Shown here piece by piece: positions 1 through 532 of a stretch of 532 bases of DNA. The notes under the pieces are model-generated. The model worked only from the letters and a program-made list of their open reading frames with translations. It ran no database searches and had not been told where the DNA came from. Source of the DNA: a phage; the sequence record EF516996.1; one strand, written 5' to 3'. The translations under genes were made by a program, and so were the position numbers. Each line of letters opens with the position of its first letter. The stretch's first letter is position 1.

Positions 1-532
1 GCTTCGGTCGTATCCGTGACCTTGAAGCTAAGCACTTCAAGAAAAACGTTGAGGAACAACTCAACAAGCGCGTAGGGCACGTCTACAAGAAAGCATTTAT
101 GCAAGTTGTCGAAGCTGACATGCTCTCTAAGGGTCTACTCGGTAGCGAGGCGTGGTTTTCGTGGCATAAGGAAGACTCTATTCATGTAGGAGTACGCTGC
201 ATCGAAATGCTCATTGAGTCAACCGGAATGGTTAGCTTACACCGCCAAAATGCTGGCGTAGTAGGTCAAGACTCTGAGACTATCGAACTCACACCTGAAT
301 ACGCTGAGGCTATCGCAACCCGTGCAGGTGCGCTGGCTGGCATCTCTCCGATGTTCCAACCTTGCGTAGTTTCTCCTAAGCCGTGGACTGGCATTACTGG
401 TGGTGGCTATTGGGCTAACGGTCGTCGTCCTCTGGCGCTGGTGCGTACTCACAGTAAGAAAGCACTGATGCGCTACGAAGACGTTTACATGCCTGAGGTG
501 TACAAAGCGATTAACATTGCGCAAAACACCGC
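1..532 (+). CDS. 1: Internal fragment of bacteriophage T7-type single-subunit DNA-directed RNA polymerase (T7 gene 1); partial at both ends, codon phase begins at position 3, covers approximately residues 151-326
   Basis: Frame 3 on the + strand is open across the entire window (176 complete codons, positions 3-530), whereas frames 1 and 2 hit stops within the first 75 nt. The translation is near-identical to my recollection of T7 RNA polymerase, including the KR and KK motifs at residues 172/173 and 179/180, the GVVGQD hairpin motif and the TGGGYWANGRRPLALVRTHSKK stretch. Codon usage is phage/E. coli-like. Confidence 0.95.
240..287 (+). other. Coding segment for the promoter-intercalating beta-hairpin of T7 RNA polymerase (approx. 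residues 230-245, HRQNAGVVGQDSETIE; Val237 encoded at 261-263)
   Basis: Residue numbering derived by counting from F151 at position 3. The hairpin assignment comes from established structural knowledge of T7 RNAP promoter complexes, not from anything computable in this window. Confidence 0.6.

Follow-up and report, generated by a model that had tools for sequence, protein, structure and literature searches.

P274S in a partial gene 1 sequence of bacteriophage T7: one of six G:C>A:T transitions and probably a passenger substitution

The analysed stretch of DNA, 532 nt in length and hereafter called the window, comes from the interior of gene 1 of bacteriophage T7, which encodes the T7 RNA polymerase (T7 RNAP). 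It differs from the T7 reference at six positions, all of which are G:C>A:T transitions, and one of these replaces Pro274 by Ser in the C-linker of the enzyme. The window is probably derived from canonical T7 gene 1 by chemical mutagenesis, deamination or some other artificial alteration, and P274S would be a passenger in it.

The sole open reading frame of the window extends from position 3 to position 530 on the + strand and comprises 176 codons without a stop. The window could be aligned without gaps to nt 3619-4150 of NC_001604.1 with an identity of 98.9% over 532/532 nt, and the aligned T7 stretch falls within gene 1 (CDS 3171-5822). Compared with T7 RNAP (gene 1, NP_041960; PDB 1CEZ, 1QLN, 1MSW, 1H38), 526/532 nt and 172/176 residues are identical, the frame is shared and indels are absent. 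A megablast search against the phage collection resulted in 254 records, with canonical T7, T7.1 and phage DE3 at the top, each matching over the full length at 98.9%. Furthermore, the window matches the Pfam family RPOL_N (PF14700) with 51.2 bits (cutoff 30.1), and its product is matched by the T7 RNAP chains of the PDB at E=3e-114. An AlphaFold2 model of the window fragment reached a pLDDT of 90.9, and a Foldseek search with this model returned T7 RNAP elongation complexes as top matches, with E-values down to 3e-23. With its end in codon 327, the window does not reach the catalytic C-terminal domain (palm, fingers and thumb, with D537 and D812).

The domain borders used here are taken from the literature (PMC3961267, PMC10110463, PMC11617373), where subdomain H is formed by residues 151-190, the promoter-binding domain by residues 72-150 and 191-267, and the C-linker by residues 251-296, including the hinge loop 258-266. 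The features of the window are:

1..532, + strand: T7 gene 1 fragment, beginning with the final 2 nt of codon 150 and ending 2 nt into codon 327, with whole codons 151-326; subdomain H (151-190), the later half of the promoter-binding domain (191-267) and the C-linker are included
303..440, + strand: C-linker, residues 251-296 by the literature definition, with the hinge 258-266 at window 324-350
360..386, + strand: motif P270-C-V-V-P274-P275-K-P277-W278 (reference residues), family consensus P-x-[VIL]-[VI]-P-P-[KR]-P-W
372..374, + strand: codon 274 with P274S, TCT (Ser), where the reference has CCT (Pro; NC_001604 nt 3990-3992)

P274S results from a C>T transition at window position 372, which corresponds to T7 nt 3990 and the first base of codon 274 because the alignment to NC_001604.1 is ungapped. 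In the translation of the window, Ser274 is found in the context MFQPCVVSPKPWTGITGGGYW. An earlier note on this DNA had read TCT (Ser) at 372-374 against CCT (Pro) in T7, and this was confirmed by the reading frame and the alignment to the T7 reference. The same alignment bore out the residue number 274 and the change of the motif CVVPPKPWTG to CVVSPKPWTG. The case allowed for in that note, a T7 reference that itself carries TCT, was checked as well, and the reference codon is CCT. Proline is present at position 274 in every solved T7 RNAP chain, in 28/28 matching complete E. coli genomes (DE3 and other T7-expression laboratory strains) and in 22/22 relatives from IMG/VR, down to 79% amino-acid identity.

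The earlier note had taken P274S alone, whereas the comparison with the reference reveals it as one of six G:C>A:T differences in 532 nt. In total, four amino-acid substitutions (G198S, S202F, A247T and P274S) and two silent changes were detected, which on the coding strand are four G>A and two C>T transitions, with both strands hit, and which correspond to T7 nt 3731, 3762, 3775, 3824, 3909 and 3990:

113, + strand: G>A, GAG>GAA, E187E, synonymous; GAA is found in 10/22 natural relatives
144, + strand: G>A, GGC>AGC, G198S in the promoter-binding domain; Gly in 22/22 close relatives
157, + strand: C>T, TCT>TTT, S202F in the promoter-binding domain; Ser in 22/22 close relatives, variable in distant ones
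206, + strand: G>A, GAG>GAA, E218E, synonymous; GAA is found in 5/22 relatives
291, + strand: G>A, GCA>ACA, A247T between the intercalating hairpin and helix J
372, + strand: C>T, CCT>TCT, P274S in the C-linker

Beyond window position 372, the sequence is identical to the T7 reference. None of the six changes was seen in any of the references, DE3 lysogens or solved structures found.

All four missense changes are located in the promoter-binding domain or the C-linker. Like P274, the residues G198 and S202 do not vary among the 22 close relatives, whose amino-acid identity goes down to 79%; judged by this conservation, G198S and S202F could weigh as heavily as P274S, or more heavily. For codon 247, Thr was counted in 76 and Ala in 20 family representatives, and A247T thus leads to the family-majority residue. 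Thr247 is also present in two wild T7-like contigs (L022 and L028) among the 22 close relatives. Furthermore, A247T was recovered in the T7 RNAP variant Mut7 (F162S/A247T), which was obtained by error-prone PCR and droplet sorting in a screen for low dsRNA (bioRxiv 10.1101/2024.05.23.595468). A247T is common to the window and Mut7, whereas the window has the wild-type F162 and Mut7 is without P274S, G198S and S202F. A further mention of A247T, in a preprint on interferon-stimulated genes, was discarded, as it concerns the gp4 primase and not the polymerase.

The mutation spectrum was set against the variation that occurs naturally in these 528 nt, for which the counts of 14 distinct close relatives with 25-65 differences from T7 each were pooled. 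Among these natural differences, 43% are A:T>G:C transitions, 30% are G:C>A:T transitions and 27% are transversions, and six G:C>A:T transitions out of six are expected under this spectrum with P about 8e-4. The natural differences are 90% synonymous (567 synonymous to 64 non-synonymous); at this ratio, at least four non-synonymous changes out of six are expected with P=0.0013. In contrast to this, random G:C>A:T hits in the window stretch would, in the absence of selection, yield 173 missense, 85 synonymous and 14 nonsense changes, and the observed ratio of 4 missense to 2 synonymous agrees with the unselected expectation of 173:85. Two marks of G:C-specific mutagenesis or deamination were found: an exclusive G:C>A:T excess over the natural spectrum, and a missense-to-synonymous ratio close to that expected from mutation alone. 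Three of the six changes (E187 GAA, E218 GAA and A247T) coincide with natural states, which is compatible with chance (28% expected per site, P=0.23).

Since all six changes are G:C>A:T transitions and their missense-to-synonymous ratio is that of unselected hits, P274S is best read as a passenger of mutagenesis or damage rather than as a meaningful single substitution. We infer that the burst of six transitions over 532 nt arose by base-specific mutagenesis of G:C pairs, which would have been followed by little purifying selection. Alkylation (nitrosoguanidine or EMS), hydroxylamine, or deamination of cytosine, be it by an enzyme or spontaneous, would be candidate causes; alternatively, the sequence may have been altered in silico or by other artificial means. 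P274S would then most likely be a passenger, and neither a natural polymorphism nor a designed change.

A precedent is given by mutagenised T7. Treatment of T7 with nitrosoguanidine or hydroxylamine results mostly in GC>AT changes, with 4-8 mutations per genome per treatment (PMC6042481). As far as they are described in the summary of PMC6042481, the T7 lines mutagenised with nitrosoguanidine (Springman et al., 2010) and with hydroxylamine (Bull et al., 2013) resemble the window in a G:C>A:T-dominated spectrum and in several hits per genome against the background of canonical T7. However, the density in the window is 6 changes per 532 nt, which, if uniform, would correspond to several hundred changes genome-wide. 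Regarding the sequence context, 5′-purine-G, the context of nitrosoguanidine, was found at 4/6 sites (P=0.28) and 5′-TC at 3/6 sites (P=0.14); neither amounts to an enrichment, and six sites are too few to name a mutagen. Likewise, at these six sites no informative preference was observed for the contexts of AID (WRC), RIP (CpA), CpG or APOBEC/DddA-type enzymes (TC).

Several collections were searched for the allele. By megablast against the phage and complete E. coli genome collections, the allele was not found and the best identity was 98.9% throughout; because this is exactly the value of six mismatches, no record in these two collections carries even one of the changes on the reference background. 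In the plasmid collection, megablast gave no match to the window, and neither IMG/VR nor the JGI metagenome contigs contained an exact copy of the 32- and 36-mers that span mutated sites. A degenerate back-translation of CVVSPKPW had 19 matches in GTDB genomes, all of which were rejected as chance matches that showed no homology to RNA polymerases. Among them, CVVSPKPW occurs near the N-terminus of a glycosyltransferase-like ORF of 401 aa in three Rhodoferax genomes (L007 2447-3652; also L009 and L020). A word-indexed protein search resulted in five partial proteins. Three of these (P0001, P0002 and P0005) are partial T7-like RNA polymerases with 65-76% identity, which NCBI lists under Streptococcus danieliae, Xylella fastidiosa and Klebsiella pneumoniae; their contigs measure about 300-400 nt, and they probably stem from phage or contaminating reads that entered bacterial assemblies. 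In a full-text search of 8 million papers, no T7 RNAP paper naming P274S, G198S or S202F was found, and a search for mutational scans was likewise without a relevant result.

The absence of the allele from every collection searched is also what would be seen if the six differences were non-biological, that is, if they stemmed from cytosine-deamination damage, from a sequencing or assembly artefact or from a deliberate or synthetic alteration. This is possible, with a modest likelihood. An exclusive G:C>A:T spectrum is at the same time the signature of deaminated template DNA, and the background of the window is otherwise base-for-base that of the reference. On the other hand, random damage is normally averaged out in consensus assemblies, and the window contains neither a stop codon nor a frameshift, which argues against an artefact.

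If P274S is a passenger of mutagenesis, its consequences depend on its position in the C-linker. [quoted passage not shown] Residue 274 is located 8 residues past the hinge (258-266), on the C-terminal, catalytic-domain side of the 267-268 pivot. The placement of residue 274 between the N-terminal domain and the core, as proposed in the earlier note, agrees with this, since the residue lies inside the published C-linker (251-296). In the AlphaFold2 model, residues 263-281 are non-helical. The lowest pLDDT (77) was obtained over residues 261-270, consistent with a mobile hinge, and residues 271-280 are modelled confidently (pLDDT 94) and non-helically, consistent with a fixed extended segment. 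The fragment model was superimposed on elongation-complex structures (8DH*, 1MSW, 1H38) with TMq values of 0.53-0.59, and on initiation, promoter and lysozyme complexes (1CEZ, 3E2E, 1ARO) with 0.34-0.35. AlphaFold therefore arranges subdomain H relative to the promoter-binding domain in an elongation-like manner.

To determine conservation, residues were counted per alignment column in 153 representatives drawn from the entire single-subunit RNAP family:

position 266: Pro in 137/150
position 270: Pro in 147
position 274: Pro in 116/149, other residues in 33/149 (K 11, E 10, Q 3, S 2, R 2, A 2, others)
position 275: Pro in 149/149
position 277: Pro in 101
position 278: Trp in 149/149

Accordingly, P270, P275 and W278 are invariant or nearly so, and P274 and P277 are variable in distant relatives. 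A natural Ser at position 274 occurs in two distant family members, for example in P0033 (PCIISPKPW). These counts indicate a position that favours Pro and is clearly replaceable, and P274S is most likely tolerated with a mild effect. A stronger defect is possible, given that Pro274 is retained in 78% of the family.

P274S exchanges the first proline of the conserved P-P-[KR]-P-W segment of the C-linker. This proline follows closely on the hinge and on the 267-268 pivot, towards the catalytic domain, and the N-terminal domain turns about that pivot in the initiation-to-elongation transition. The expected consequence would be a small gain in local backbone freedom at residue 274. The nearest known case is P266L in the hinge of the C-linker, which has a strong effect on abortive cycling and leads to fewer short abortive transcripts (PMC3961267). 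Both substitutions remove a proline within the C-linker 251-296, and greater flexibility of the linker may be a shared mode of action; by this analogy, a loosening of the backbone upon loss of the proline at 274 is plausible. However, P266 is located inside the hinge 258-266 and is more conserved (137/150), whereas P274 follows 8 residues downstream, past the pivot (116/149). P274S shares the location in the C-linker (251-296) with P266L and lies outside the hinge loop 258-266. The idea of a loss of rigidity is weakened because K, E, Q, R, A and S occur naturally at position 274. For P274S we infer no more than a slight reduction in rigidity or stability, or a small P266L-like shift in the balance of abortive cycling and promoter clearance. 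As regards P274S alone, the polymerase is expected to be functional.

It is improbable that P274S is instead a selected C-linker mutation, derived from a screen or an evolution experiment for altered promoter clearance or for reduced toxicity, activity or dsRNA, which loosens the linker in the way of P266L. For such an origin speak the position of residue 274 in the C-linker (251-296), near the hinge where P266L acts strongly, the clustering of the four missense changes in the promoter-binding domain and the C-linker, and the recovery of A247T from an independent low-dsRNA screen. However, two synonymous G:C>A:T changes occur alongside the substitution, and taken together the changes have the missense-to-synonymous ratio expected for unselected hits. 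The literature search yielded no T7 RNAP paper that names P274S, G198S or S202F, and position 274 varies naturally and sits on the static side of the 267-268 pivot. Very improbable is the pair of more far-reaching readings in which P274S, either by itself or jointly with G198S, S202F and A247T, was selected as a change to the promoter-binding domain and C-linker that alters the initiation-to-elongation transition, or in which the burst of G:C>A:T changes records an in vivo attack of a cytosine deaminase on T7 DNA.

A natural lineage is unlikely for the window, and an origin from a natural close relative of T7 with P274S as an ordinary polymorphism is scarcely credible: E187 GAA, E218 GAA and A247T do match the states of wild relatives and Ser occurs at column 274 in two distant family members, but the nearest non-identical relatives differ at at least 25 of 528 nt, 90% synonymous and with a mixed spectrum, whereas the window has six changes of one class, four of them missense, and natural polymorphism was rejected in the tests of both spectrum and dN/dS (P about 1e-3 each).

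Few enzymes have been studied as thoroughly as T7 RNA polymerase, and its point mutants are commonplace. Both the gene and the kind of variant described here are already known, and the window represents an ordinary laboratory-type variant. The useful outcome is the corrected context of P274S, which should be taken not as a single informative variant but as part of a G:C>A:T cluster, by which the sequence can be recognised as a copy of the reference gene that was mutagenised, damaged or altered. If P274S does affect promoter clearance, it would be a modest addition to the C-linker mutations available for the tuning of in vitro transcription. If it should prove to have been selected, it would provide a new P266L-like handle on abortive cycling or on dsRNA by-products.
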